A DNA stretch of 64,000 bases, from contig OZ253462.1 of the NCBI GenBank assembly GCA_965261395.1, positions 2,176,001 to 2,240,000 of the forward strand, read 5' to 3'. The notes beneath the pieces are model-generated. The model did no database searches, was not told the DNA's origin, and saw nothing but the letters and a program-made list of their open reading frames with translations. The position numbers and the translations under genes are program-made. Of this stretch, positions 47,311 through 64,000 are shown one piece after another. Position 1 is the stretch's first letter. Every line of letters begins with the position of its first letter. The DNA comes from Candidatus Latescibacterota bacterium (GTDB lineage: Bacteria > Latescibacterota > UBA2968 > UBA8231).

Positions 47311-47360
47311 ATTGTTAATGAAGCTTGGGAACGCGATACCTCAAACCGGAGCAATGCCCC

Positions 47361-48659
47361 ATGGCCACGGACTTGTGCCAACACATCGCCGACACGCTGC
47401 TAATCGACACGCACGAACATCTGCGCAAGGAGCGCGATTGGGTCGAGAATGGCCCGGACATTTTGCAAGACCTTTTTGGCAACTACGTGCCCGCCGACCT
47501 GATCGCCGCCGGGGCCACTCCCGCAGACTTGCACAAGCTCAACGACGCCTCCGACCCAGACTTTGGCGCGCGCTTTGACGGCATCCGCGCGGCCTTTGCG
47601 GCCATCCGCTTCACCGGCTACGGCGAGGCCGTGCGCATTCTCGCACACGAAGTTTATGGCATGGCCGATTTTAGCGGCGACGAGCTGGACAAGGCGCAAG
47701 AAAAGCTCACTGCTTGGCGTCAACCCGGCGGGCGGCACGAACTGCTCAGCCAGATAGGCCGGCTGGACCACGTGCAGACCGACGACTTCTCTTGGCCCTG
47801 CACGCCCGACGAGTCCGGCGTGGACTTTTTCCTCTACGACTTGTCGTGGGCCGCCTTTTGCAACGGCCAAATTGACGCCGAGGCCATTGAGGGAGAAACC
47901 GGCGTGGCCGTCACCGACTTGGCTAGCCTCAAGCAGGGCATGGAAGCTATCTTCGACCAGCACGGCCCCCATGCCATAGCGGTCAAAGCCCAGCATGCGT
48001 ACAACCGCACACTGCGCTGGGAAGAGCGCGCCGACGCCGACGCCGAGCGCGTGCTCCAACGCCTGCTCCAGGGCACAGAGCTCGACGAGCCGAGCCGGTT
48101 GCTGTTGGGCGACTGGTGCTGGGCGCGGGGCACCGAGTTGGCGATCGAATACGAGCTGCCGTTCAAGATCCACACTGGCTACTACGCTGGCAACGACCGC
48201 ATGCCCGTTGACCGCATCAAAAGCGGCAACCTCTGCCCCTTGCTGGCCCGCTACCTCGATTGCCGCTTTGTACTGATGCACATTGCCTATCCCTATTCCA
48301 ACGAATTGGTCGCGCTGACCAAGCACTACCGCAACGTGTACGCCGACCTCTGCTGGGCGTGGTCCATTGATCCGTACAGCGCGTGCGACTTTGTGCGCCG
48401 CTTTATCCACGCCGCTCCTGCGTCCAAGCTCTTTGCCTTTGGCGGCGATACCGGCTGGCCGACCAGCTCGGTGGCCTACGCGATTCAGGCGCGCCGCTGG
48501 CTCACCCGTGCCCTCCAAGGCGAGATAGACGACGGCCTGCTGACCGAGGCCGAAGCTATAGAACTAGCGACCCGCTTTATGCGCGGCAACCAAGAGGCCT
48601 GTTTCGATTTGGCTGGGACGCGGCAGGCGCTACGCGAGACGGTTTCAGCGGCTGGCTAG
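47361..48659 (+). CDS. Amidohydrolase superfamily protein
   Basis: IDTHEH, IHTG, MHIAYPY, FGGD. Confidence 0.85.
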   Translation: MATDLCQHIADTLLIDTHEHLRKERDWVENGPDILQDLFGNYVPADLIAAGATPADLHKLNDASDPDFGARFDGIRAAFAAIRFTGYGEAVRILAHEVYGMADFSGDELDKAQEKLTAWRQPGGRHELLSQIGRLDHVQTDDFSWPCTPDESGVDFFLYDLSWAAFCNGQIDAEAIEGETGVAVTDLASLKQGMEAIFDQHGPHAIAVKAQHAYNRTLRWEERADADAERVLQRLLQGTELDEPSRLLLGDWCWARGTELAIEYELPFKIHTGYYAGNDRMPVDRIKSGNLCPLLARYLDCRFVLMHIAYPYSNELVALTKHYRNVYADLCWAWSIDPYSACDFVRRFIHAAPASKLFAFGGDTGWPTSSVAYAIQARRWLTRALQGEIDDGLLTEAEAIELATRFMRGNQEACFDLAGTRQALRETVSAAG

Positions 48660-48665
48660 GGTTCG

Positions 48666-51472
48666 TTAACGAGGCGGCACTTTATTCATTACCCTCCGCC
48701 TCCTCTTCCGCTTCCCTGTCGCTTCCGCCGCTAGCGGTGCTTGCGACTGCTCGTAAAGCGTAAAGAGATGCTCTACGCGCTCTCGCTCCGAGGCGAAGCG
48801 TGCGCGGCGATAGAGGCCGTCCACAGCGCGGTCGAGGGCTGAGTGCGCTCGACGCAAATCGGGCGGCATCGCGTCTGGGTCGTAGAGATCGGCGAGCGTA
48901 GCGTCAGGATGGTTGGCGCGGGCGGCGAGGACGGCGTCGGCATGGGGAGCGAGGCGTTCTAGGTCTTTCTCGGAAACAAGTGGGAGAGGGAAGGTGTTAT
49001 AGACGACGCCTATGGAATAGCGGTAGTCGCTTTTGAGCCGCCCGCCGAAATGTCGCATCCACGCCATGTGCATAGCCGAGGTGAGTAGGGCGAACGTCGG
49101 CTTGGTTGCATTGACGAGGACGCGGACGAGGTTACTTGGAACGACCGGAGGTTCTAGCCAGCCTATGGGCACATATTCGCGCCGTTCGGAACTCACTTCC
49201 GGGATGACCAAGAACGGGGCATCGGGGATGACGTTGACGTGGTAAAGCGTTGGTGTTTCCGCCAGCTTGCGAGTTGGTGCGCTTTTGCTTTGTCGCCGAA
49301 AGGCGCGTACAGCCCGCACACGCTCGTGTAGGGCCGGTGCCTGCCGCAGCAGGTCGGGCGGTGCCTCGCCGAGCCACAGAATCCAACGCTCGCCACCGTT
49401 GAGGTATTCCCAAGCACCAATGAACGGGCGAACATAAGGCGCAGCCTTTGGGCACTCCGCTAACAACGCATCGCGCTCGTCCGCATCTAAGATGTAATGG
49501 CCGCCATCAATCGGCTTCGACCCAATGATGAGCTTCGCCAGCCCATTGATCGGCTGACTCTCCGTGCCCACGACCAAATGCGGATTGGCCAGCCCGCCGC
49601 CGTCGAACAGATAAGGCGTGATTGCCGCGAAGCTAGCTTCCTCCGGCTCGCCGTTGATGTCGGGATAGGCAAACAGCCGCTTTTCCTTGCGTGCCGTTTC
49701 CCGTTTGTCCAGTCCGATAATCACCACGTGAACATGCGCCTTGCCGCGTGCATCCGAACCCCAAGCAAACGTGGGTGAGCAAAGGCAATGTCGAGGCGGC
49801 AGCGGTTGAACAAGACCGGCCAAAGCTGCGCCACCTGCTCGCCCTGCGTAATGGAATTGGTGGCCACGAACCCAATGCGCGGATTGCCTTTCTGCGCGTA
49901 CTCGCCAGCGCGTATGAACCAAGCTGCCACGTAATCAAGGGTGCCGCCGCTGCCGCCAAGCGCAGCGACCTGTTGTACCTGCTTCCGTTGATCGGAGGAC
50001 TGGAGCTTCGCGCCCACAAATGGCGGATTCCCGAATACATACGAACATTCCGCTGGCGGCAGCAGTTCGGCCCAGTCCATTGTTAGCGCGTCCGCGTTGT
50101 GGATGTGCGGCGACTTCTCAATCGGGATACGCGCATAGGTCTGGCCGAACTCTAAGCTCAGCCGGTTGTTCATAATGTGGTCCATCATCCACAGCGCGGT
50201 CTCGGCGATGCGCGCTGGAAACTCGCTAATCTCGATGCCATAGAACTGATCAACGTTGACTACGGAAAGCAACTCGGCGAATGCAGAAAGCTGGCCGGAT
50301 GGGTGCAACTCGCGCAACACCTCGATCTCAAGCTGCCGCAGCTCGCGGTACGCGATGATGAGGAAGTTTCCGCAGCCGCACGCCGGGTCGAGAAACGTCA
50401 ACTGACCTAGTTTTTGTTGGAAAGTGTATAGATCGGGGATGCGGCGGTTGTCGCGCCGGGTCTTCAGGCGTGCAAACTCGGCCCGCAGGTCGTCTAAAAA
50501 CAGCGGCTCAATCACCTTGCGGATGTTCTGCTCGGTGGTATAGTGGGCACCCTGGGCGCGGCGCTCGGCTGGCTCCATCACCGATTGGAACAGCGCGCCG
50601 AAGATGGCCGGGGAAATCGCGGTCCAGTCGAACAAGCAAGCGTCAATGAGGCTCTGACGCATTTCGGCGTCGAAATCGGGGATGCGAAGCGGTTCGGCGA
50701 ACAACTCGCCATTGACATACGGGAAGCGCGCCAAGTCCTCGTCTAGCTTGGTTTGCCGCCGCTCCTCCGGCGTGTTCAAGACTTGAAACAGTCGCGCTAG
50801 ATAGGGGCCGAGGTCGCTGCCGTCGGGTGAGGTGCGCTCCTCAATGAACTGCAAGAAGATGTCGCGCGGCTCGAAGATGCCGGTGTCGTCGGCAAACAAG
50901 CAAAACACCATGCGCACGAGGAAAAGCTCCAAGTCGTGGCCGTCGTAGCCAGACTCAGCGAGCGCATCGTGCAGGCGAGCAATGCGCTCGGACGCCTCGA
51001 TGTTGACCGGGTCTTGGTCGCGGAATGTGCGCCGCTGCACCCCGATGATGAAGCCGAACTTTTCGACGTACTGCGGCAGGTCGGCGAGGGCAAAGCGCGT
51101 CTCCTCGCGCTCATCTCGGTCGAGCAGTTCAAAGGTCTGAAAGTCGCAGAGCAGTTGGTAGCGGGGGCGGTCGCGCTCAGGCAGTGCATCGAAATAGGTA
51201 CCGGCCTGTTTACGTGCGGCGGTAAGGTCGCGGCCCGCGCTCTTTTGCTCGACCAGCAACACGCCCGGCCAGAACAGGTCAATGAAGCCGTGCGAGTTGT
51301 CCAAACGGCGAACGTGCTCCTCATAGCGCGCAACCGTGCGGCGACGCACGCCGAAGATCTCAAAAAACTCGTTGTAGAAGCTTTGGGTCTCGCCGCTCTC
51401 ATAGGTCGCGTTGGCCCACTCCGAGGCGAATTGGGCGGCGCGGGAGCGGATTTCGTTCCATGAAAGGCGCAT
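48666..51472 (-). pseudogene. MmeI-like type IIL restriction-modification enzyme with a single frameshift near 49775
   Basis: N-terminal ID..WPG.LLVEQK nuclease; GAHYT, LDPACGCGNF, GNPPF; FAH|TFAW split by an apparent 1-bp loss; C-terminal TRD GRLKSDYRYS...TLADLYD. Confidence 0.9.
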
Positions 51473-51966: not shown

Positions 51967-52701
51967 CTATTGAAACAACTGCACCGTCGGCTTGATTACC
52001 AAGAGGGGCACGCAGGCGCGGGGCGGTAGTGAGGCGACGAAGAGCGCGGCTTGGGCCAGCTCTTCAGGTTGCAGCATGGCGGCCCGGCGTTGGGCGCTGA
52101 CGGGTTCGGGCCGCTGGGCCAAAATTGGCGTCTCTACCTCGCCGGGACAGATTGCGCAGGCGCGGATGCCGGACTCGACTTCCTCTTCGTTAATCGAGTT
52201 CGTCAGCGCTACCGCCCCGTGCTTGGAGGCCGAATACGCGGCACCGGCCAGCTTGCTGGCCCGCAGGCCGGCGATGGACGAAATGGTGATGATGAGGCCG
52301 TCGTTTTTTTGCCGCATCCCCGGCAACACCACCCGCGCCATGTTGTACACCCCAGTGAGATTGATGGCAATGGTCTGGTCCCAGTCCTCGGGTGCCACGT
52401 CGCCGACTGCGCGCGGATTGGTGTTGATGCCGGCGTTGTTGACTAGGACATCGACGGCACCCCACTTGGCCTCGACGGTGGACGCTAGGGCCTCGACCGC
52501 GCTGCGGTCGGATACGTCGCAGGCGTGGAGCAGAATCCGGTCGGCATCAAGGCCAGCGGCCGCAGTGGAGAGCGGTTCAGGACGTCGCCCGACAAACGCC
52601 ACCCGCGCTCCTGCGTCGGCAAAACCGCGTGCTATAGCCGCGCCGATCCCAGTGCCCGCGCCGGTTACAACAACAACTTTATCGACGAATTGCCGCATCA
52701 T
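51967..52701 (-). CDS. SDR family oxidoreductase
   Basis: [17 protein letters not shown]. Confidence 0.93.
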
Positions 52702-54167
52702 TCTGCTCCCTTTTTAAGTGCCTGTAAGCGCTGGGCTTCCTCGCGCTGCTTGTAAAACGAGTCGAGGGGAAAGCAGCCCGAAATCATGCCGTTGCGCGGC
52801 GCGGTCGTGCAATCGGAAAACGTGCGGCAGATGACGCGGCGTTGCAGTTGGCCCGTTTGCAGCACGTCGCAGGGCAGGTCGGGATAGGACAGAACCATCC
52901 GCCCTAAGCCGATAAAATCCACCATGCCTGCCCGTACGAGGGCCTGCCCCACGTGCGGCAGGTACTCCTGCAAGTAGGAATAACCCGACCCGACGAACAG
53001 GCTGCGCGGAAAGCGCGCCTTGAGCCGGGCGACCATTTCTACTTGCCGCGCCACTCCGCACAGTGGGTCTTCCGGCGGCAGGTACCCATCGGAAGGGGGA
53101 AAGAGCGCCGGTCGCTGGATGTGCGGATTGTAATAAGGGCTGCCGCAGGACAAGTTGAACAGGTCCACGCCCAAGCTCTCCAACAAGGCGATGAACTGCT
53201 CGGCCTCGCCTAAGTCCATTTGCCGTGGGTCGCCCTGATCGACCCCAAAGCCGTACTCGTAGGGCAGGCAGTTTTGATACGGCTCGGGCACTCCATGCCC
53301 CGGCTTGCCGTCGATACTCGCGTTTGGATCGGGCTGGAAGGGCACCAAGTCGAAGGCGCTCAGCCGCACGCCGATACCGAGGCCGGGTGCTCGGTTGCGG
53401 ATCCCCTCGATGATGCGGCGGACAAAGCGCGTGCGATTGGCAAACGAGCCACCAAAGGGGCCGGGCCGCGTAAACGCGCTGAGGAATTCGTGCCCTAGGT
53501 AGCCGTGGCAATGCTTGATGTCCACGAAGTGATAGCCCAGTTCATGGGCGATTTGCGCACCGGCGACGTAGCGATCGATCAACTCCTCGATATAGGCGTC
53601 CGTCAGGAGCGGATAGTCCGCGTCAAGGCCGAATTTGCGATCCAGAATCGGGTGGTGATAGAGAATGGCCGGCGCGGATTGGTCCTTGCGATAGGGCCGA
53701 CAAAACCGCCCCGAATGCGTCAGTTGCAGGCCGAGGAGCAGATCGTCGGTGGTGCCAAACTGCTCGCGGTGTGCCGACAAGAGGATGTCGCGGAGTTCGG
53801 CCATGCCAGCGCGGTTTTCCTCGCGCGCCATAAGCTGGTTCGGGTTGGCGCGGCCCTCGGGTGCCACGGCGAATGCCTCCCCGCCCCAGATGAGCTTGGC
53901 CCCGCTGCGCCCGAAATTCCGCCAGCGACGGCGCGTCAAGTCGCTCGGCTGGCCGTCTTCAGTCCCATCCCATCCCTCCATCGGCTGAATGGCAAAGCGA
54001 TTGCCGATGCGGATGCCGCCGGGGTACGCGGCTTGGGCCAGCGGGGAAGAGGGTGCGGTTTCGATCTGGTCGTCGCAGGGCAATTCCGCGCCCAAATGGG
54101 CCAAGTGGGCGCGAAAGTCCGCTGCCCGCTTAAAGCTGGAGATGCGCGGATAGCGCGTCTTGGCCAT
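52698..54167 (-). CDS. NADH:flavin oxidoreductase (old yellow enzyme family)
   Basis: [27 protein letters not shown]; true start probably MAKTRY, overlapping the lgt stop. Confidence 0.88.
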
Positions 54168-54919
54168 TAAGAGGCCTCCCGGCGTTGCAGGTACAGCATC
54201 AGCCCCAAACCGAAGGCAATCATGGCGAGGCTGAGGAGCTGGGCTTGGCTCAGGCCCCACAGTACGCGCGGGTTGACCCGAATGAACTCCACCAAGAACC
54301 GCGCTAGTCCGGCGAGGATGAGATAGAAGCTGAACGACAGACCCGGGGGCTTGAAGCGGGTCCGCATCTTCCACAAGAAGGCAGCGATCCCCAAGTGGGC
54401 GAGGGTTTCGTACACGGGAGCGGGATGGACCTTTTCAAGGGTTGGCACCACCCCGTTGGGATAGGCCATGCCCCAGGGAAGATCCGTCGGCACCCCGTAG
54501 TCGCCATCGCCGGCGAGCTGGCAGCCGATCCGCCCGATCCCGTAGCCCACGGCAATTGCAATGCCCAACGAGTCGGCGACTTGGCCCAGCGGCGCACTGT
54601 GGCGGCGAATTTGCCACAGCGTGCCGGCAGTGGCGACGACAAATCCCCCGTACCAAGTCAAGCCGTAGCCAGAAAACAGCAGGTCGAACACCTCATCCCA
54701 GGTCTCAGGCGACGTTTCAAATAGCACAAAGTAGAGCTTGGCTCCGACGATCCCGCCGACCATGCAGGTGGTGACAATCGTCGATCCCAGCTCGTCGTGT
54801 AGCCCTTGGCGCTTGAACTCGCGGTTGAGCACACGCAGGGCCGCCAAGAAACCAAGGGCGACCATGAGGCCAAACGTGCCGATGCTAATGGGGCCGATCT
54901 CGAATAGGTAGGGATACAT
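54167..54919 (-). CDS. lgt: Prolipoprotein diacylglyceryl transferase
   Basis: [28 protein letters not shown]. Confidence 0.92.
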
Positions 54920-54921
54920 AA

Positions 54922-57900
54922 TCAGATGTTTTTGCGGCCCAGCGCCTCGATCTGTCGCTTAAGTGCTGCGGCGATCTCGTAGTAGATCTCATAGGGACTC
55001 AACGCCTCGGCGCGCCCTTTGAAAGAGGTCGTTTCTAGGGGGGGGCCAAAAAGCAGGCGCAAAGGGTGACGCGCTGGTGTGCGCGTCCCCTTGGGCAAGG
55101 CTTCGCGGGTGCCGGCAATGTGCAGGGGCACTACGGGCATGTCCAGCTCGTAGGCCAAAAGCCCCACGCCCGCCTTAAACGGCTGTAGCTGATCGTTGAC
55201 TGAGCGCGTGCCTTCGGGAAAGACCAGCAGCGGGCGGCGCACCCCCATCAATTGCCGCGCCCGCACCAAGCCGGCGGCAAAATCACCGTGGCCGTCGAAG
55301 GGGACGGCGTTGGCAAAGGTGTACAAAAACCAGCGCAGCTCGGAGTCGGCAAGGTAATGCTCGCTGGTTGCGATATTGAGGTGATCTACATGGGAGCGCA
55401 CGGCTGAGTACACGCAAGCACCGTCGAGGTGGCTGGCGTGGTTGGCGGCAATCAGGTAGGGCCGATCTTGTGGCAAGTGCTCTAGGCCACCGGCCCGGAG
55501 GTCGAAAAAGCGGCGGAACAAGGGGCCGCCGGCCTCCCACAGGAATTCTTGCAGCATCTTTTTGCCGGCCTCGCTCTCTGGCTCGGCACTCGGCTCGGCC
55601 TGCAAGATGCCCGACCAGTACGCCGGCGACTGCTCCACCTCCCAGTCCACCCCATCGCTCAAGTGAGCCTCCAGCCGCGCCAAGACGCTGCGGAGCGTGT
55701 CCTGTGGCTGCAAAAGTCCATCGACTTGGACCCCCAGCCGCTGGCCGAGCCACGCGGCGAACTCCACTGCCATCAGCGAATCCAACAAGGTGTCGAGCGG
55801 CGCGTCTATGTGAGCTGCTACCTCCCCAGTGCTCAGACCAGCGAGCAGGCCGATTTGGCACTGGATCGCCCGCTCCCATTGCGGCAGGGCCGTGTCTGGG
55901 CAGTCTTCGCGCTCGATGGCGGTCAACAGGGTTTGGCGGTCTACGGTGCCGTCGTCCAGCCTTGGCAGCGGTTGGGTCCAAAAGTGCAGGCGTTGGATCC
56001 GCTGGTGGCTGGGCAAGGTGCGCGAAATCTCGTATGAGCGCGCTTGGATGGCCTCGCGCAGGGCTTCGACTTCCTCGGAGTCGCGGTTGATTACGGCCAC
56101 GCCGCGCACTTCTTCACCTTCGGTGCGAGCCGAGGGCACGCCGACCACGGTCAGCTCGGCCACGTGCGGCAGTCCGTGGTAGAGCAATTCGATTTCGCGT
56201 GGATAGACGTTGTGGCCTGCTCCATTGACGATCAGGTCTTTGCTCCGCCCCTCGACGAAGAGATAGCCGTCGTCTAGGCGGCCGACATCGCCGGTGTGTA
56301 GCCACCCGTCGCGCAACACCGCTTGGGTCAGTTCTTCTTGGGAAAGGTACCCCTCCATGACGTTGGCACCCCGCACCAACACCTCGCCGACGCCGCGCTC
56401 GTCTGGCTCGGCGATCTGCACTTGCTGCCCAGGCAGCACCTGCCCCACCGACCGGGCTTTGCCCTGCTTAGGCACGTTGACCGCCACGATCGAGGCCGCT
56501 TCGCTCAGGCCATAGCCTTGGCAAATCGCCACGCCGAGACGCTCGTAAGCGTCGAGGAGGTCGTCGGACAGGGTTGCGCCGACGCTGACGACCCGCCTCA
56601 GAGCCGCTAGTGCAGCCGTGGCCTCCGTGGCCTCGGCCCCGAGGCGCTCGACGCGGTCGGCCAAGACGCGCAACAGGCGCGGCGCGGTCAACAGCATGGT
56701 CGTACCCGTATCGTGCAGGGCGCGGAGCATCTCGCGGCTGTTGACGGCCTCTAAATACGTGATGGTGGCCCCGCTGAGCAGCGGCAGCAGCAAGCCGCCC
56801 GTGAATTCGAGGACTTGGTGCAGGGGCAGGGTCGAGAGCATGCGGTCGGATTCGTAGATGCCCAGCACTTCGCCTTGGGCTAGGACGTTGCAGATGAGAT
56901 TGCGATGGCTCAACACCACTCCGCGCGGCTCGATGACCGAGGTAAAGAGGATCGACGCTGTGGCGTCTGGCCCGACCCGCGGCGACTTCCAGCGGCTGGC
57001 TCCGCCGGCTGCGGCCGGCTCGGGAGCGTGCCCGAACGGCAGACCGTCGCGATCTACATTGAAAAAGGCCATCTCCTTGTGGGCAGCTACGCCCTCGGGC
57101 GAGAGCAGGGAAAAGCGCTTTTCCGCCGCAATTAGCGCCCGTGCTTGGACAAAGTCGCACAGTGCCCAGATGTCTTCCTCGCGCGTCTGCGGGTCGATGG
57201 GCACGACCGCTAGCCCGAGCAGGCTGGCCGCCATGTAGGCGATGACCCACTCCGGCCCGTTGTCCCCGCACAGCAGAACCCGCGCATCGGCCGACACGCC
57301 CTGCGCTTGCCAACTGCGCGCCATGCACTCGGCGCGAGTGAGCAACTCGTCGTAGCTGATCCGCGTCCAGCCGGCGCGGCGTTCGATTTGCAAGGCCGTT
57401 CTGGCGGCGTAGCGGCCGCAGGCCCAGCGCAACAGGTCCGGGATCGTGCGGATGCTTTCCTCGATGCGCCAGCGCTGTTCCTCGCCCCCCACTTCGCTCG
57501 GAGCCGCGCTCAACGGCTCGCGGTCGTCGTCGGTTCCGCCCAGTTCGTGGCGCCGCAGGCCGGGCAGGTGGGTCCTTTGATAATATTGATACCAGTCAAT
57601 CCGCCGCACGTCCATGTTGAAGATTCGCTGCTCTTCGGGGGACAGCGACTCGTAGAGGGCCAACATGCGCTTGGTTTCATAGCGGCAGTCGAGGGTCGTG
57701 TACGGGCTGAATAAGTCGGTGAAGTACTGGACGCGCTTGAGTCGCGTCTTAAGCGCGGCCAAGCGGCGTTTTTTCTGGGCCGGTGCCCAGCGCTCGGGCA
57801 GGTACTCGTAGAGCTTTTGCTTTATCTCCAGAGGATAGAGGTACTTCCAGTTGAAGGCGCGCTGGAAGCGGGCCACCGTCGGGAAGGTCCAATCCACTAG

Positions 57901-59124
57901 CTCGGGCCGCGAGCCGTCTTTGTTGAGGAGGGGGTGTTCCTCAAAGTAGCCTTTTACGTACTTGAACATCCGGGTGTTGGGCAGTGGGTTTTCCTCGCTG
58001 GTTGCCGCGTGGAATACCTCCACTTTAGAGGCCGTGGCCTGCGTGGCCGCGGCCAGCACGGTATTGACGACGATGTCCACGGGCACCAAGTCCATGGGCG
58101 CACCGCCTGCGGCCGGGAAGTCCGGGACAATCCCCCGCCCGTAGGCCACGATTAGTGGATCGGTTACTTTGAGGCCGTGGATCCAGCCTGGATGTGGATC
58201 TTCGAGCGCGCCTTCGGTGACGCTGGGCCGCACGATGGCCAGCGGCACTTGGTCGCGGTGCTTGACGAGTAGCTGTTCGCCCATGGCTTTGGTAAAAGTG
58301 TACACGTCATTCCAGCCATGCTGCCGCGCTCGGCGCATCCCCTCCTCGACCAGCTCGCGCTCGATCCAGCGGCGACAGCGGTCGTCAACCAGCTTTTGCA
58401 AGCGGCTGTCAGAAAGTTTGCGGCTATGGCTCTGCTCGACGATCTCGTGGCGGAATGCTTGCTGTTGCTCGGCGCTTTGCGCTTGGGCGCGGATTGCACG
58501 GCAGCGGGCTTGCGCTTGGGCGATCTCTTCTTCGGGGACGAAAGGCTGTGGAGGCGTGTTGCCGTCGATCAGGTGTTGAATAGTGCGATTGATCGGAAGT
58601 GTTTGCTCGGGGATGGTGCCAGTGAGGCGGCCGTTGACGTATGCGGTTGATACGTGTACTAAGACGGGCTTTTTGCGGCCTTCGCGGGCCAGCCGCAAAA
58701 GCTCCTGAGGTGCCAAGGTGTTGAATTGGATCGCCGAGTCGAGCGGTTCGTCAAAGGTGACGCTAGCCGCATTGCCGATGATGAGGTCAACTTCCGCTAG
58801 CAGCTCGTCGCGGGATGCGTCGTCTAGCCCGAGGCCTGGCTGCCGCATGTCGCAGGCGAGGGCGCGCACCTTCTGTCGCACCGCGGCAAAGGCGGCTGGC
58901 TCCTCGCGGCGAAAGCGGTCGAAGACGACTAGCTTGAAAAGCTCGTCTAGCCGCTCCTCTACCGGCAGCGCGGCCCCGCCAGGACTCCGACCGGGCCGCA
59001 ACACGAGGTACAAGCACCGCACGCCGGGCAAATAGCGCAGGATCTTGGCCGTCAGCCCCTGCCCGTAAAACCCGGTGCCGCCGGTCAGCAACACGGTGCG
59101 GTCCTGATAGAATTCTCTGATCAT
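54922..59124 (-). CDS. ElbD-like multidomain enzyme: fatty acyl reductase - adenylation - ACP - lysophospholipid acyltransferase
   Basis: TGGTGF.G, HVSTAYV, YTFTK, male-sterility C-terminus; GYGLSE, HTGDVG; LDSL; NHASHLD, FPEGTRS. Confidence 0.88.
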   Translation of the reverse strand: MIREFYQDRTVLLTGGTGFYGQGLTAKILRYLPGVRCLYLVLRPGRSPGGAALPVEERLDELFKLVVFDRFRREEPAAFAAVRQKVRALACDMRQPGLGLDDASRDELLAEVDLIIGNAASVTFDEPLDSAIQFNTLAPQELLRLAREGRKKPVLVHVSTAYVNGRLTGTIPEQTLPINRTIQHLIDGNTPPQPFVPEEEIAQAQARCRAIRAQAQSAEQQQAFRHEIVEQSHSRKLSDSRLQKLVDDRCRRWIERELVEEGMRRARQHGWNDVYTFTKAMGEQLLVKHRDQVPLAIVRPSVTEGALEDPHPGWIHGLKVTDPLIVAYGRGIVPDFPAAGGAPMDLVPVDIVVNTVLAAATQATASKVEVFHAATSEENPLPNTRMFKYVKGYFEEHPLLNKDGSRPELVDWTFPTVARFQRAFNWKYLYPLEIKQKLYEYLPERWAPAQKKRRLAALKTRLKRVQYFTDLFSPYTTLDCRYETKRMLALYESLSPEEQRIFNMDVRRIDWYQYYQRTHLPGLRRHELGGTDDDREPLSAAPSEVGGEEQRWRIEESIRTIPDLLRWACGRYAARTALQIERRAGWTRISYDELLTRAECMARSWQAQGVSADARVLLCGDNGPEWVIAYMAASLLGLAVVPIDPQTREEDIWALCDFVQARALIAAEKRFSLLSPEGVAAHKEMAFFNVDRDGLPFGHAPEPAAAGGASRWKSPRVGPDATASILFTSVIEPRGVVLSHRNLICNVLAQGEVLGIYESDRMLSTLPLHQVLEFTGGLLLPLLSGATITYLEAVNSREMLRALHDTGTTMLLTAPRLLRVLADRVERLGAEATEATAALAALRRVVSVGATLSDDLLDAYERLGVAICQGYGLSEAASIVAVNVPKQGKARSVGQVLPGQQVQIAEPDERGVGEVLVRGANVMEGYLSQEELTQAVLRDGWLHTGDVGRLDDGYLFVEGRSKDLIVNGAGHNVYPREIELLYHGLPHVAELTVVGVPSARTEGEEVRGVAVINRDSEEVEALREAIQARSYEISRTLPSHQRIQRLHFWTQPLPRLDDGTVDRQTLLTAIEREDCPDTALPQWERAIQCQIGLLAGLSTGEVAAHIDAPLDTLLDSLMAVEFAAWLGQRLGVQVDGLLQPQDTLRSVLARLEAHLSDGVDWEVEQSPAYWSGILQAEPSAEPESEAGKKMLQEFLWEAGGPLFRRFFDLRAGGLEHLPQDRPYLIAANHASHLDGACVYSAVRSHVDHLNIATSEHYLADSELRWFLYTFANAVPFDGHGDFAAGLVRARQLMGVRRPLLVFPEGTRSVNDQLQPFKAGVGLLAYELDMPVVPLHIAGTREALPKGTRTPARHPLRLLFGPPLETTSFKGRAEALSPYEIYYEIAAALKRQIEALGRKNI

Positions 59125-59134
59125 GGCGGAAACG

Positions 59135-59182
59135 GAAAAAAGCCCCATCCTGTGCAGCGAGTGGCCCGTCAGGACAGGGCTT
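59135..59182 (-). terminator. Intrinsic-terminator-like hairpin directly upstream of the ElbD-like gene
   Basis: AAGCCCTGTCCTG...CAGGATGGGGCTT stem (two G-U pairs) then a U-tract. Confidence 0.6.
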
Positions 59183-59227
59183 AAAATGCTGTAATATAGA
59201 AGGCGGGGTGCCCTCCCACAAGGAGGC

Positions 59228-59374
59228 TCACTGCGCGGGACGCTTGGGATCGCGGCCCTTGCTATCGCGCCGATTTCGGTCTAGCCCTTGCTTGGTGATA
59301 TAGGGGTGTTCGACCTGTTTTTCCAGTTCGCGGCGCTGGTCGGCCCAATCGATGTCTCGTTTTCGCTTGGCCAT
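59228..59374 (-). CDS. Small charged 48-aa hypothetical protein
   Basis: MAKRKRDIDWADQRRELEKQVEHPYITKQGLDRNRRDSKGRDPKRPAQ*; below the ORF-track cutoff; host-like codons. Confidence 0.55.
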   Translation of the reverse strand: MAKRKRDIDWADQRRELEKQVEHPYITKQGLDRNRRDSKGRDPKRPAQ

Positions 59375-59439
59375 GTTTTGATATTATCTTTGTTATCTAG
59401 GTTAATCTATGCGCAGGACGGGACGGGACAACCCAAGCT

Positions 59440-60345
59440 ATGTCCAAACACTGGGTCTTGATAGCTAATCCAACGGCGGGCAACGCCCGCGCCCGCAGCG
59501 TCGCCGAGCAAGCATCTTTGGCTATACAAGCCGCCGGCCAAGCGGTCGAATTGCGCTACACGCGGGCCAAGGGCCACGGAACCGAACTGGCGCGGCAGGC
59601 CGTGGCCGAGGGCGCTGAGCGGCTCGTGGTCTGCGGCGGTGACGGCACCATCGGCGAGACACTTGCGCCCCTCGCCGGTTCGCACACGGCCTTGGGGCTA
59701 CTGCCCTGTGGCACGTGCAACGACTTGGCCCGCGCCCTCGCCGTGCCGTTGCGCGTAGAAGCGGCCATAGACAATCTGCTCCGTGGCGAGGTGCGCGCCA
59801 TAGACTTGGGGCGGGCTGGCGACCGCTTCTTCGCCACAATTGCCGCCTTTGGCTTTGACGCCGAAGTCAACCGCCGCATGGAAAGCGCCCAAGGGCCTCT
59901 GTCCGGGCGGCCCCGCTATATCTTGGAAGCGTTGCGGCACATCGTTCGCTACCAGCCAATTCGGGTCCGCCTTTGCGGCGATTTCGGGGAGATTGAGCAA
60001 GAGGTGCTGCAAGTATCTACCGCCAATGCGCGGAACTATGGAGGCAATCTGTGCGTTGCCCCAGATGCCGACCTCGGCGATGGCCTCTTCGATGTGGTCG
60101 TCGTCGATGCGGTGCCACGGCGGGCGATCTTATCGCTGATGCTCCGCCTCTTTTGGCAAGCACACGTCCGCCATTCAGCCGTGCGCGTCGAGCGCACGGC
60201 CCGCCTAACGCTGCACACCGACGCGCCGCACCGCGTATATGCGGACGGCGACTATCTAGATCAGACGCCGCTCGTGCTGGAAATTAGCCCGGCGGCTCTG
60301 CGGGTGGTGGTGCCGAGTTCTTGCTCGCAAGGGGTGCGTTGCTGA
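59440..60345 (+). CDS. Diacylglycerol kinase-family lipid kinase (YegS/DgkB-like)
   Basis: NPTAG, GGDGT, P.GT.NDLAR, GFDA, YGG, DG. Confidence 0.92.
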   Translation: MSKHWVLIANPTAGNARARSVAEQASLAIQAAGQAVELRYTRAKGHGTELARQAVAEGAERLVVCGGDGTIGETLAPLAGSHTALGLLPCGTCNDLARALAVPLRVEAAIDNLLRGEVRAIDLGRAGDRFFATIAAFGFDAEVNRRMESAQGPLSGRPRYILEALRHIVRYQPIRVRLCGDFGEIEQEVLQVSTANARNYGGNLCVAPDADLGDGLFDVVVVDAVPRRAILSLMLRLFWQAHVRHSAVRVERTARLTLHTDAPHRVYADGDYLDQTPLVLEISPAALRVVVPSSCSQGVRC

Positions 60346-60395
60346 TATTGCCCAAGGGGCGGCATTTCAATTACGACTTATTACACAACGTTTTT

Positions 60396-61373
60396 ATGGC
60401 TACCCGAGCACAGCAAATACGCCTTGGCATCTTCTTCTTGGTTTCGCTCTCCGTCCTCGCGCTGTTCTTCTTCGTCGTCGCCGGCAGCCATCTCCTGAGC
60501 CAGCGCGATACCTATTACATCGAGTCCAACTCGCCCGTCAGCGGCCTCAACAAAGGCGCGGACGTCAAGTACTTGGGTTTTAGTATTGGCCGAGTCGAGG
60601 ACATTGCGATCGCGCAGGATCATCTCTCTACTTTGGTAATCGAGATTTCGATCGAGAGGCGGCGGGCCGCAAACGCCATCCGCACCGACACGCAAGCGCG
60701 CATGGCCTCGTTGGGGATCACCGGCCTGAAGTTCATCGAGCTTTTCGGCGGCAGCGACGACGCTTCAGTCCTCCCTCCGGGGTCCACCATTGTCGCGGGT
60801 GATACTTTTTTTAGCAGCATGCAAGAGCGTGCCGAAGTGCTCAGCATCAAGGTGGAGCAAACCATCGACAACCTAAACGCGTTGTTCAGCAGCGAAAACC
60901 AGCGCGTCTTCACCGAGACGCTGAACAACGCGGGCAATCTGCTGGCCACGGCCAACGCGCTGGTCGAGGACAACCGCTCCGCATTCGACGAGACCGCGGC
61001 CAATATGGTTGCCACCAGCCGCTCGTTCGCCAAGACCAGCGCGACGTTGGAGACGACGGTCGATTCCCTGCACGCCTTACTCGTGGGCGCGAAGCTGCAA
61101 CAGACGGTTGACGACCTGCAAGTGACGATGCACAAGTTGCGCCAGCAAATGGACGGCCCGGTTCCCTTGCTTATCGCGCGGATGGACACCGTGATGGGCC
61201 ATATTGACCGGACCTTTGTGGGCATCGACCAGACCGTGGGGGCCAGCCGACAGAATCTCCTGCGCGCCATGCGGGAACTGGAGGAAACTTTGCAGAATAT
61301 CCGCGAAACCACCGAACTAATCCGCGAGAATCCCGCGGTACTCATCCGAGGTCGCAGTGGTGGGACCCAATAG
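60396..61373 (+). CDS. MlaD/Mce family substrate-binding protein
   Basis: N-terminal TM; VSGL..GADVKYLG..IGRV; GITG..FIEL; helical tail ending ENP..LIRG. Confidence 0.9.
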   Translation: MATRAQQIRLGIFFLVSLSVLALFFFVVAGSHLLSQRDTYYIESNSPVSGLNKGADVKYLGFSIGRVEDIAIAQDHLSTLVIEISIERRRAANAIRTDTQARMASLGITGLKFIELFGGSDDASVLPPGSTIVAGDTFFSSMQERAEVLSIKVEQTIDNLNALFSSENQRVFTETLNNAGNLLATANALVEDNRSAFDETAANMVATSRSFAKTSATLETTVDSLHALLVGAKLQQTVDDLQVTMHKLRQQMDGPVPLLIARMDTVMGHIDRTFVGIDQTVGASRQNLLRAMRELEETLQNIRETTELIRENPAVLIRGRSGGTQ

Positions 61374-62124
61374 CCGAATTCGCCGCTGCGGTCAGGCCAT
61401 CATCTTGGCCGCCGCTCTATCCGGCTGCGCCCAGTTGCTAGGCGGCGACGCTAAGCTGCTGCAACGGCGCTATTTCAAGTTGGATATCGAACCCTTGCGC
61501 GGTAGCTTGGAAGGTTCCGAGCGTCCGTACCCTTTCCGATTGCAGGTCAAGGGCTTTGAGGCGCCCCGAGCGTATGACCGCACCCACATCATCCACCGCC
61601 GAGACCAGTACGAACTGCAGCTCGACAACCTCCACCACTGGATGGAGCGCCCCGGCGACATGATTACCGACGCGGTCAAGCAGTACTTGCGCCAAGCTGA
61701 CCTCTTTACCTATGTCGGCGGAGATGGCGATTTTTTCGAGCACCGCCCGGATTACGTGCTCGGCGGCTCAGTCAAAGCCATCGAGCGCTTCGACAGCGGC
61801 GACTTGTGGGCAGCCCATCTCGTTATGACGATGGAACTGGTTAGGCAGGACGATGGCAAAGTTATATGGCAGGACGATTTCGACGAGGAGAAACAGGTGT
61901 TTTCCCCGGCCATGATACACACGGTAGCCGCGTTGAGCGGGATTTTGGGCCAGCGGATGAAGAAGGCGATCAGGGAGATTGACTTCAAGTTCAGCAACAA
62001 GCAGCGGCCCATGCCCATCGCGCCCATTGCATCCGACGAGGAAATCGCCCCAGCGGCCCGAGATACAGTGCTGCAAACCGAAGCCGGTCACTACGAACTC
62101 ATACCGGGAAAGCTGGCCCCCTAG
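61357..62124 (+). CDS. PqiC-like ABC transport auxiliary lipoprotein
   Basis: Lipobox LSGC; W.ERPG motif; position in an Mce operon. Confidence 0.8.
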   Translation: MVGPNSRIRRCGQAIILAAALSGCAQLLGGDAKLLQRRYFKLDIEPLRGSLEGSERPYPFRLQVKGFEAPRAYDRTHIIHRRDQYELQLDNLHHWMERPGDMITDAVKQYLRQADLFTYVGGDGDFFEHRPDYVLGGSVKAIERFDSGDLWAAHLVMTMELVRQDDGKVIWQDDFDEEKQVFSPAMIHTVAALSGILGQRMKKAIREIDFKFSNKQRPMPIAPIASDEEIAPAARDTVLQTEAGHYELIPGKLAP

Positions 62125-62132
62125 GACTTGGC

Positions 62133-63638
62133 ATGTACAAGCTACTCTACATCCTGATCGCCCTGCCGTCGCTCGCTGGCCCAGCCCTAGGCGACAGCTA
62201 CACTTGGATCGCCCCACCCGGGCGCGGCCAACTCGAACAGGACCCAACGCTGATTCCCAAGGGCAAGGGCTTTCTCTTCGTGCCGACGATGTCCGGCTCC
62301 CTCAACGAGCCCAGTTTCCTCGTCTTACAGGGCAACAAACCCATCCGCGAAGCCGCCCCCGGCACCGGCGTGTTGCTCTCGCCCGGCAACTACGAATTGC
62401 TGGTCGGCTCGGGCACGGACATTCAGATGACGAGCCGCACCGTGCCGATCCAAGAGGGCATGACGACCCTGGTAAAGCCCTTCTGGGCCGGACTAGTCAT
62501 CAACGTCATGTCCGAGAACCGCACATCGATCAACGAATCCTATGAACTGTACCGGGAATCCTCGCAGGAAAACTACGGCCTCGGTTTTGGTGTCGAGGAG
62601 GAGCGAGGCGAAGCGGTCAAAACTTGGCTCCTGCCTCCAGGCGTTTACTCAGTAGTGCAAGTCGGCGACAACGTATTAACCACCCGCAAGTTTAGCGTCC
62701 GCTTAGAGCCGGGCGAGTTGGTCCAGCGCAACCTAGTAGTGGACACCAGTGACGATACCTTCATCGGCTTCTACCCCCCGGCTCAGCATGGCCTCCTCGC
62801 CCAAGTGGATGGCCCGCGTTGGAAGACCTCCCTTCAGTTAAGCGGCTCGCCCCGGCTGTCCACCTCGCAAAATAAAACCGGCGCAGATCGCTCGGTCCTC
62901 GCGCTCTCCGCTGAGATCTTCGGCAGCAGCATCTATAATACGGACCGCCACTACGCCAATCTGCGGCTGGACTTTGAAGAGGGTTTCACCCGCGAGGAGG
63001 GCGATGACTTCCGCAAGTCCGTCGATGAGTTTGAGGTCCGCGCTACATATATCTACCGGCTTTCCAAGCGAATCGGCCCCTATTTGCGCGGGGTGTTCAA
63101 CACCAAGCTATTCGCCGAGGAGGAACGCTTCGACCAGCCGCAGAGCCTGCTGATCCGCGACGGCAACCAGATCGAAGCCATGGCGGGCATTAGCGAATTT
63201 ACCCTCTCTCCGCCCTTCAGCCCCCTCGAACTGCGCCAAGGCATCGGCATCAACGCCCAGGTTATCAGCAGCTTTCCCCTGAACCTCGACATGCGCGTTG
63301 GTTTTGGGGCGCGTCAAAGCTATTTTACCGATACCTATGACCTAAACTCCTCCGGAACCACCGCCCGCAAGTTGGAGGACCAGACCGCCACCGGCTTGGA
63401 GGCCGTGCTGCTCCTCCGGTCGCGTTTTTCGCGATTCCCCAGCTTGGATTCGGAGTTTGACCTCCTTATCCCGGAGACGGCTACCGACACTTGGGAATTC
63501 ACTTGGGAAAACCGCTTGCGCTTGCCGCTGAGTCGCTTCATCAACATGGTCGTCGTCTTCGACTTCGAGCGCAAGCCGCCGGTCCAGCGGCTGCAATCTG
63601 AACAACAGGTCCTGCTGCGCCTCAACTATTTGCTATGA
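62133..63638 (+). CDS. Exported protein, probable outer-membrane beta-barrel with N-terminal beta-sandwich domains
   Basis: Signal peptide; amphipathic strands; C-terminal LRLNYLL. Confidence 0.65.
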   Translation: MYKLLYILIALPSLAGPALGDSYTWIAPPGRGQLEQDPTLIPKGKGFLFVPTMSGSLNEPSFLVLQGNKPIREAAPGTGVLLSPGNYELLVGSGTDIQMTSRTVPIQEGMTTLVKPFWAGLVINVMSENRTSINESYELYRESSQENYGLGFGVEEERGEAVKTWLLPPGVYSVVQVGDNVLTTRKFSVRLEPGELVQRNLVVDTSDDTFIGFYPPAQHGLLAQVDGPRWKTSLQLSGSPRLSTSQNKTGADRSVLALSAEIFGSSIYNTDRHYANLRLDFEEGFTREEGDDFRKSVDEFEVRATYIYRLSKRIGPYLRGVFNTKLFAEEERFDQPQSLLIRDGNQIEAMAGISEFTLSPPFSPLELRQGIGINAQVISSFPLNLDMRVGFGARQSYFTDTYDLNSSGTTARKLEDQTATGLEAVLLLRSRFSRFPSLDSEFDLLIPETATDTWEFTWENRLRLPLSRFINMVVVFDFERKPPVQRLQSEQQVLLRLNYLL

Positions 63639-64000
63639 CGTGGGTGCAGAGCGACGAACAGGGAATCGCGCTCGGGCGCGCGCTTTCGCTACACACTATC
63701 GGCGCGCTCGTTCCCCAAGTCCGCGATCTCATCGCCGAGCATCCGCGCTCCGCGCTCCGCGCTGACTTGCGCCAAGTCGAACACCTCGACACCGCGGGAG
63801 CCGTCTTCCTGCGCGGCTTGCCCGATCTCGCCCGCTCCTTGGACAAGGAACTCCGCCTCGATGGGCTACCCACCCACTTGCAGCCCGTTTTCGACTTTGC
63901 CACGCCCGCGCCGCCGCTTGAGCCGCCCGTGCCGCGCCGCGTCGCTCTTGAACGCCTCGGCGCGTGGGTCCGCGCTTGGGGCGTCCGCGCCGCTGATTTT
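63635..64000 (+). CDS. STAS-domain N-terminus, probably a STAS-MlaE permease fusion (runs off the right edge)
   Basis: ATGA overlap; DLRQVEHLDTAGAVFL STAS motif. Confidence 0.75.
   Translation, partial: MTWVQSDEQGIALGRALSLHTIGALVPQVRDLIAEHPRSALRADLRQVEHLDTAGAVFLRGLPDLARSLDKELRLDGLPTHLQPVFDFATPAPPLEPPVPRRVALERLGAWVRAWGVRAADF

Follow-up and report, generated by a model that had tools for sequence, protein, structure and literature searches.

Why does a bacterium's gene for diacylglyceryl transferase (lgt) begin two nucleotides behind a gene of the ElbD type, whose Myxococcus xanthus namesake takes part in ether-lipid synthesis? The arrangement lies in a 64,000-nucleotide stretch, called the window below (positions 2,176,001-2,240,000 of contig OZ253462.1), of the single-contig 6.55-Mb genome of a Candidatus Latescibacterota bacterium, which is 95% complete by marker genes. 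A sequence-only reading of the window had proposed ether-lipid or fatty-alcohol synthesis outside the myxobacteria and, from the lgt linkage, lipoproteins with an alkyl-glyceryl anchor. The explanation that we favor, with a probability of about 0.7, is that the locus is an envelope-lipid neighborhood in which a fatty acyl-CoA reductase (FAR) feeds an alkylglycerone-phosphate synthase (AGPS), and in which a housekeeping lgt was placed by a gene-order event at the level of the family.

The ElbD-like gene and the probable ether-lipid genes of the genome

The gene in front of lgt encodes a protein of 1408 amino acids (aa), close to the ~1400 aa that the sequence-only reading gave it. Pfam domain calls (threshold E<=0.001) place NAD_binding_4 at residues 21-363, Sterile at 466-534, AMP-binding at 574-935, AMP-binding_C at 985-1062, and Acyltransferase at 1220-1344. 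No Pfam call was obtained for an acyl carrier protein (ACP) domain in this protein at that threshold; the ACP phosphopantetheine motif, LLDSLM (Ser1124; region 1114-1132), is invariant in an alignment of the protein with 13 homologues from Latescibacterota and Acidobacteriota, at identities down to 33%. The Pfam coordinates and this motif bear out the proposed ElbD-type order of FAR, acyl-CoA synthetase (ACS), ACP, and AGPAT-like acyltransferase in one polypeptide. Also invariant in the alignment are GxxGxxG and YxxxK of FAR, the DSL around Ser1124, and HX4D (H1237..D1242) and PEGTRS of the acyltransferase. Compared with the fatty acyl-CoA reductase structure 7eoz, the whole protein gives an E value of 7e-63, with residues 263-538 as the best-scoring stretch. 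The closest public relatives are 87-93% identical across the whole protein, and full-length homologues in Acidobacteriota and Poribacteria are 31-38% identical.

Within the genus, all domains of the ElbD-like protein are under purifying selection, which is strongest on FAR. Across five pairs, the ratio of nonsynonymous to synonymous substitution (dN/dS) is 0.10-0.135 for FAR, 0.17-0.28 for ACS, 0.12-0.32 for ACP, and 0.12-0.17 for the acyltransferase. The adenylation P-loop reads FTS--VIEPRG (residues ~736-740), a two-residue deletion common to the genus and its nearest relatives, and the dN/dS of ACS argues for function despite this deletion. In the family at large, the C-terminal half is decaying: genera g3, g4, and g6 have degraded HX4D or EGTR motifs, and a FAR-only open reading frame (ORF) of ~540 aa replaces the full gene in at least g5, g7, g9, g15, and g16, with lgt and the following flavoenzyme gene still downstream.

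As passages of PMC9131029 describe it (after Lorenzen et al. 2014), M. xanthus ElbD is part of the elbA-E operon and has the order FAR, ACS, ACP, AGPAT-like acyltransferase in ~1400 aa. By that description, the window protein is alike in domain order, in length, and in its FAR, ACP-Ser, and HX4D motifs, and differs by the P-loop deletion. The surroundings differ as well. Instead of an adjacent elbB (HAD) or elbE/elbA (NAD-epimerase family), the window has lgt, an Old Yellow Enzyme (OYE), and a classical short-chain dehydrogenase/reductase (SDR); the best HAD match in the genome lies at 5.84 Mb, with 31% identity. M. xanthus ElbD (UniProt Q1DC43) was absent from the homologues returned, the alignment-based scan and an Acidobacteriota-seeded search giving Acidobacteriota, Poribacteria, and similar.

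The ElbD-like gene holds the sole FAR of the genome, the next NAD_binding_4 match scoring 52 bits versus 198. An AGPS of 613 aa is encoded at 3.21 Mb, 0.98 Mb from the operon, and is followed by an overlapping SDR gene, the two spanning G000:C1:3211165-3213800. Residues 38-601 of this protein match the guinea-pig AGPS structure 4bby at E 1.7e-148, and the next non-AGPS match stands at E 3.6e-26. Because the ElbD-like gene has the sole FAR and a clear AGPS with its SDR is present, ether-lipid synthesis probably runs from FAR to AGPS. The organism probably makes ether lipids, and we infer that the conserved job of the ElbD-like gene is to supply fatty alcohol to AGPS. A further protein of 646 aa, encoded at 0.75 Mb (G000:C1:746986-748926), has a weak acyltransferase match (PF01553, E 0.003, below cut-off). 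With one FAR, AGPS plus SDR, and this weak acyltransferase, the genome resembles the route of eukaryotes and of M. xanthus MXAN_1676-1674 (FAR1, GNPAT, AGPS, and acyl/alkyl-dihydroxyacetone phosphate (DHAP) reductase), and differs from it in having these genes at three separate places and in having FAR as part of a fusion with ACS, ACP, and acyltransferase.

In two sister families, f2 and f3, FAR (~535 aa), a 645-aa protein, and AGPS form one operon (L079 1953-7352, L081 2009-7643). The 645-aa protein, which has the weak PF01553 match and otherwise no Pfam family, is a candidate DHAP acyltransferase, and its homologue in the window genome is the 646-aa protein. AGPS was found in 39 of the 41 genomes of the window's family, in 27 of 29 of f2, in all 13 of f3, in one of two of f4, and in one of the 36 genomes of families f5-f14. 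FAR-type matches are confined to f1-f4, except for genomes G003, G015, and G020. In G015, from a distant Latescibacterota family, a full ElbD is followed by genes for a HAD hydrolase (elbB-like), a Zn-dependent alcohol dehydrogenase, a LarA_N-domain protein, and a YegS-type kinase (L077 10857-15415); this locus may be an AGPS-independent ElbD cluster. The PlsA/Ger marker PF09989 was looked for in the window genome and not found. CarF/PEDS1 (PF10520) and wax-ester synthase (PF03007) gave no match in the genome either, a result that is uninformative since the control was silent in every genome.

The ether-lipid role outside the myxobacteria is thus plausible from the sole FAR and the bona fide AGPS; the proposal is reasonable but already known in kind, homologues having been published. 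ElbD homologues are reported from Acidobacteriota (subdivision 4) and Poribacteria in passages of two sources (bioRxiv 10.64898/2026.06.23.733905; PMC9426513), and passages of the preprint also record "standalone elbD hits" in metagenome-assembled genomes of sponge Latescibacterota and diacylglycerol (DAG) kinases beside elbD. The window lineage belongs to the sponge-type Latescibacterota named there and likewise has a DAG kinase beside its elbD. The lgt-OYE tail and the FAR-only variants of the window's family are not described in these passages, and the words "lgt" and "diacylglyceryl" are absent from the running text of the preprint.

Copy number, descent, and linkage of lgt

The lgt of the operon is the sole Lgt match in the genome by the Pfam model, and seven diverse Lgt queries, that of Escherichia coli included, match only this gene in the whole genome by tblastn. 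The second, housekeeping lgt that the sequence-only reading had left room for was found by neither search. The family model PF01790 is matched end to end (positions 1-240 of 240), the stricter equivalog TIGR00544 reaches 101.1, under its cut-off of 118.9, and the structure of E. coli Lgt (5azb) is matched at E 1e-12. The lipoprotein pathway is complete, with one LspA and two full-length Lnt encoded elsewhere in the genome, and a crude lipobox screen retained 521 of 17,421 ORFs, compared with 112 of 10,565 in the reversed genome. Since the genome has no second Lgt, this one must do the housekeeping job, and it is predicted to be an ordinary housekeeping enzyme. A dedicated lgt paralogue is ruled out by the single Lgt in the genome together with its placement among sole Lgts in the tree.

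Lgt is present in 116 of the 121 Latescibacterota genomes surveyed, mostly in exactly one copy. In a tree of 42 Lgt rows, with support given as the SH-like approximate likelihood ratio (SH-aLRT), the 17 FAR-linked Lgts make up a clade of their own (100), which joins an f8/f14 pair and the single-copy Lgts of sister genera g17, g24, and g26 (93) in a three-way fork that the tree leaves unresolved. This placement next to single-copy Lgts from sister genera is a sign of vertical descent. The g17 gene adjoins cysS. A separate clade (99) takes in the Lgts of families f3, g21, and g22, that of genus g3 (its sole Lgt), and second copies from two genomes of the window's family. These second copies, in G095 (L066 5113-5925) and G111 (L070 4894-5733), have Asn at the position of E. 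coli N146 and lie beside CobW, DUF3299, and ABC-3 transporter genes, which suggests a metal-related context for the spare lgt.

Equivalents of E. coli Lgt R143, R239, E243, R246, D129, H196, Y201, and G154 are retained in the window Lgt. The catalytic or essential roles of R143, R239, E243, Y26, N146, and G154 in the E. coli enzyme reportedly go back to work by Pailler in 2012 and Mao in 2016. At the N146 position, the window Lgt has Cys, as is the case in 33 of 41 Latescibacterota Lgts, sole copies included; Cys is therefore a lineage trait and not a mark of the FAR-linked copies. At the Tyr26 position (residue 16 of the window Lgt), Phe is present in all 17 FAR-linked Lgts and Tyr in 23 of the 24 other Latescibacterota rows; this is the only change specific to the FAR-linked clade.

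Among close loci, lgt directly follows the FAR/ElbD gene in 26 of 29. Two of the misses are contig edges; in the third (L030), FAR is followed by OYE without lgt between them. Adjacency holds in 35 of the 41 genomes of the window's family, representing 14 of its 16 genera. Three of the six genomes that lack it look like contig breaks (G117, G092, and G114), and two belong to genus g3: in G056, neither lgt nor OYE follows ElbD on its 81-kb contig, and G045 has its ElbD and Lgt matches on different contigs. In the sixth, G076, no Lgt and no clear FAR/ElbD match was found (best E 3.7e-24). Adjacency was seen in none of the 47 genomes of other Latescibacterota families with a FAR-type match, as judged by eye from the listed places. 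In a wider set of 67 ElbD/FAR loci, the ten that have an Lgt within 6 kb all belong to this one family type; the other 57, without one, include every locus of Acidobacteriota, Poribacteria, Gemmatimonadota, Aminicenantes, Dehalococcoidia, and Rubrobacter. By the synteny check that the sequence-only reading itself had proposed, conservation of the linkage is limited to one bacterial family, and synteny of elbD-like genes with lgt across phyla was not found among these loci. The lgt of E. coli, too, is closely followed by a gene in the same direction. There the partner is the unrelated thymidylate synthase gene thyA, 6 nt downstream, and tight lgt spacing therefore need not mean shared function. 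The linkage of lgt is best read as operon history.

Layout, partners, and expression of the putative operon

The putative operon begins with a small ORF, continues with the ElbD-like gene, lgt, OYE, and SDR, and faces a lipid kinase gene and an MCE/Mla operon (Table 1). The ElbD-like gene and lgt are joined as TGA-tt-ATG, the 2-nt spacer noticed at the outset. The lgt stop overlaps the OYE start by 1 nt (TAATG), and the OYE stop overlaps the start of the SDR gene (ATGA), which had been correctly recognized as such. An overlap between lgt and the flavoenzyme gene is thus real, at 1 nt and not the ~200 nt of the longest-ORF call. That longest ORF spans 52698-54374 (558 aa), and the true gene is shorter, from ATG 54167, as shown by the homologues of other phyla, whose first residues align with residues 67-77 of the long ORF. 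For the ElbD-like gene, the start listed as likely in Table 1 is preferred because one relative has a stop inside the 8-residue N-terminal extension.

Table 1 Genes of the putative operon and of the divergent lipid-transport cluster, in window coordinates
Feature	Coordinates	Strand	Evidence and remarks
Small ORF, 35 aa	59267..59374	-	Conserved just 5' of ElbD-like gene; without Pfam match
ElbD-like FAR-ACS-ACP-acyltransferase, 1408 aa	54922..59148	-	Pfam domains; likely true start ATG 59124
lgt, 250 aa	54167..54919	-	PF01790, 166.8 bits
OYE-family (YqjM-like) FMN oxidoreductase, 489 aa	52698..54167	-	Oxidored_FMN
Classical SDR, 244 aa	51967..52701	-	adh_short
YegS/BmrU-type lipid (DAG) kinase	59440..60345	+	DAGK_cat and YegS_C; TIGR00147
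MCE/MlaD-family lipid-transport protein	60321..61373	+	PF02470
ABC-transport auxiliary lipoprotein with lipobox (..ALSGC..)	61357..62124	+	PF03886
DUF3078 protein with signal peptide; likely outer membrane	62133..63638	+	Pfam
STAS-MlaE permease start, gene continues past window end	63635..64000	+	L260:136-1230, PF02405, 253.9 bits

The small ORF, placed 120-230 nt ahead of the ElbD-like gene, encodes a highly charged peptide. Its identity is 86-100% in close loci, and it is recognizable (~45-76%) in other genera of the family, directly 5' of FAR/ElbD on the same strand, and is possibly the first cistron or the leader of the operon.

The best structure match of the OYE is chromate reductase/OYE 5nux (E 9e-18; alignment over 119-342 plus the C-terminal barrel strands), and the HxxHGY substrate/proton-donor motif is kept as HCHGYL. 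The family, of ~485 aa, is widespread, with full-length relatives of 55-65% identity in many phyla, among them Verrucomicrobiota, Acidobacteriota, Armatimonadota, Spirochaetia, Chloroflexota, and an Algoriphagus isolate. Its neighbors in other phyla (loci L110-L181) are MFS/SSF transporters, SDRs, GFO/IDH/MocA oxidoreductases, DUF993, ThuA, and GntR regulators, and the homologue in other Latescibacterota adjoins mreBC. Outside the window's family, the OYE family looks like part of an uncharacterized small-molecule (sugar-like) pathway. A role of OYE as an ether-lipid-specific partner is unsupported, the family being widespread with sugar-type neighbors and its tie to lipids consisting in the gene order of this family alone. 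The SDR follows OYE only in the window's genus and close relatives.

With TIGR00147, the lipid kinase scores 160.2, over the cut-off of 118.65. YegS-type kinases recur at such loci: in 8 of 23 loci from other phyla, a full-length ElbD gene has one immediately upstream on its own strand, and L233, L077, and four loci whose FAR or FAR-acyltransferase genes are shorter have one a few kb downstream of ElbD/FAR. The divergent DAG kinase and Mla operon of the sequence-only reading are present on the plus strand as MlaD, auxiliary lipoprotein, DUF3078, and STAS-MlaE genes behind the kinase; no MlaF ATPase was seen beside them. Since the auxiliary lipoprotein carries a lipobox, it is a predicted Lgt substrate, encoded across the divergent promoter from lgt.

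Metatranscriptome contigs from two studies, at 92-99% identity, cover all or nearly all of the region, and single contigs bridge lgt/OYE (X1 record 2, X2 record 11) and OYE/SDR (X1 record 1, X5 record 16). RNA libraries can hold DNA, and such contigs therefore lend weak support to co-transcription. A promoter/terminator scan was uninformative, returning 0 promoter-like sites and 9 terminator-like sites versus 8.9 expected by chance.

Two further genes lie beyond the SDR. An MmeI-type restriction-modification gene (48666-51472, minus strand) consists of two ORFs overlapping by ~200 nt, the first with the N-terminal, helicase-spacer, and methyltransferase domains and the second with the target-recognition and C-terminal domains. 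These parts abut in related loci (e.g., L004 14272-15966 and 15970-17028), and the window copy may be frameshifted. An Amidohydro_2 protein (444 aa; 47325-48659, plus strand) is encoded a few kb past OYE in many genera of the family, at 64-98% identity, and is a member of the conserved neighborhood without evident link to the operon.

Competing explanations and their meaning

In the explanation that we prefer, the N-terminal FAR, the strictly conserved part of the ElbD-like protein, would make a fatty alcohol, and the distant, SDR-paired AGPS would create the ether bond by exchanging this alcohol onto acyl-DHAP, as happens in eukaryotes and in the M. xanthus MXAN_1676 route. The half with ACS, ACP, and acyltransferase may load an acyl chain and transfer it to a glycerol or DHAP backbone; it is under weaker constraint and is decayed or lost in sister genera. 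The lgt gene would have entered the operon via a gene-order event in the ancestor of the family and would be co-expressed with the lipid genes.

Several points weigh against this explanation. According to passages of PMC9131029, the M. xanthus ElbD route is largely AGPS-independent, and the coupling of FAR to AGPS is therefore inferred here, as are co-transcription and all lipid products; AGPS was not found in genome G015 despite its full ElbD. With a P-loop two residues short, the ACS step may be impaired. The assignment to ElbD rests on domain order and on the Acidobacteriota and Poribacteria homologues, M. xanthus ElbD having been compared by description. No contig bridging the ElbD/lgt junction is among the matches listed, where uncovered parts carry no weight. 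The persistence of the adjacency through 14 genera, whose ElbD proteins are as little as 44% identical, could be due to selection for expressing lgt together with the lipid genes, which would be more than an accident of history, and Phe replaces Tyr26 throughout the FAR-linked Lgts when nearly all others keep Tyr. Both the lipid and the protein products are predicted from the genes of an uncultured organism.

The last of the genetic points would be expected if Lgt were adapted to an ether-rich membrane and moved 1-O-alkyl-2-acyl-glyceryl from ether-linked phosphatidylglycerol (ether-PG), its place in the operon having been selected for a matching anchor. We consider this unlikely. It would account for the translational coupling of the sole lgt to the FAR/ElbD gene and for the adjacency in 35 of 41 family genomes and 14 genera, as well as for the change from Tyr26 to Phe in all 17 linked Lgts, in an organism that probably makes ether lipids. 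However, f2 and f3 have FAR and AGPS yet keep Lgt elsewhere (0/47 adjacent), the close relative with locus L030 has FAR and OYE without lgt, and genus g3, which retains ElbD, no longer has the linked lgt and relies on an Lgt from a different clade. Moreover, Tyr to Phe is a conservative change, and an ether linkage of any PG in this organism is only an assumption. Archaea anchor lipoproteins with ether lipids by non-homologous enzymes (PMC12462473); that source states that no Lgt homologues have been identified in archaea and names AliA and AliB as the enzymes (AliA/AliB also in PMC13631571). The likeness to the archaeal case lies in lipobox proteins within an ether-lipid membrane, whereas the window genome has a true Lgt homologue instead. 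Literature on diacylglyceryl transferase, ether lipid, and lipoprotein concerned, among the matches listed, archaeal AliA/AliB, Bacillus N-acetylation, and unrelated topics, and neither bacterial lipoproteins with an ether anchor nor an operon of lgt and ElbD turned up in the literature searched.

The bolder form of this idea is that the sole Lgt uses ether-PG and for this reason is translated together with the ether-lipid machinery, yielding 1-O-alkyl-2-acyl-glyceryl thioether anchors, with the replacement of Tyr26 as part of the adaptation; we hold it to be quite doubtful. Alkyl-acyl-glyceryl lipoproteins would follow passively if PG were ether-linked and Lgt tolerated ether-PG, and such lipoproteins are possible, without specific support gained. 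As a specific sign of them, the lgt linkage did not hold up, given the sole Lgt, the tree pointing to vertical descent, the confinement of the linkage to one family, and the relative with FAR and OYE but no lgt.

It is likewise rather improbable that the locus is a mosaic of historical origin whose genes past the first share no lipid function, in which OYE and SDR belong to an unrelated small-molecule pathway and FAR makes alcohols or aldehydes for storage or signaling lipids. The widespread OYE family, found elsewhere with transporters, oxidoreductases, or mreBC, and an SDR that follows OYE only in the window's genus and close relatives would fit such a mosaic. Against it, FAR and AGPS co-occur across the class and share one operon in sister families, and the adjacency of FAR and OYE persists across the family, even without lgt. 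The absence of a wax-ester synthase match also counts against the mosaic, with little weight because of its silent control. Finally, Lgt itself might form the ether bond by moving a (diacyl)glyceryl group from PG to the hydroxyl of a FAR-made fatty alcohol, an O-analogue of its thioether chemistry, and the FAR-lgt order is kept even where the ACS-ACP-acyltransferase half is lost, the ether-forming step of the ElbD route being given as unknown in passages of PMC9131029, but this is most improbable for a sole Lgt that stands beside LspA, Lnt, and hundreds of lipobox candidates and so must lipidate proteins, that groups with ordinary sole Lgts, that has no counterpart nearby in 57 of 57 loci outside the family type, and whose genome has a bona fide AGPS that already explains the ether bond.

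The preferred explanation, FAR feeding AGPS beside a housekeeping lgt, sets out, in terms of actual genes, the ether-lipid capacity of sponge-type Latescibacterota, with FAR in an ElbD-like fusion, AGPS and SDR elsewhere in the genome, and a lipid kinase recurring beside FAR/ElbD across phyla. The half with ACS, ACP, and acyltransferase is dispensable in several genera, which bears on what ElbD actually does. If it were true that Lgt accepts ether-PG, this would be a new type of lipoprotein anchor, not described for bacteria, and it would be relevant to the recognition of symbiont lipoproteins by innate immune receptors.

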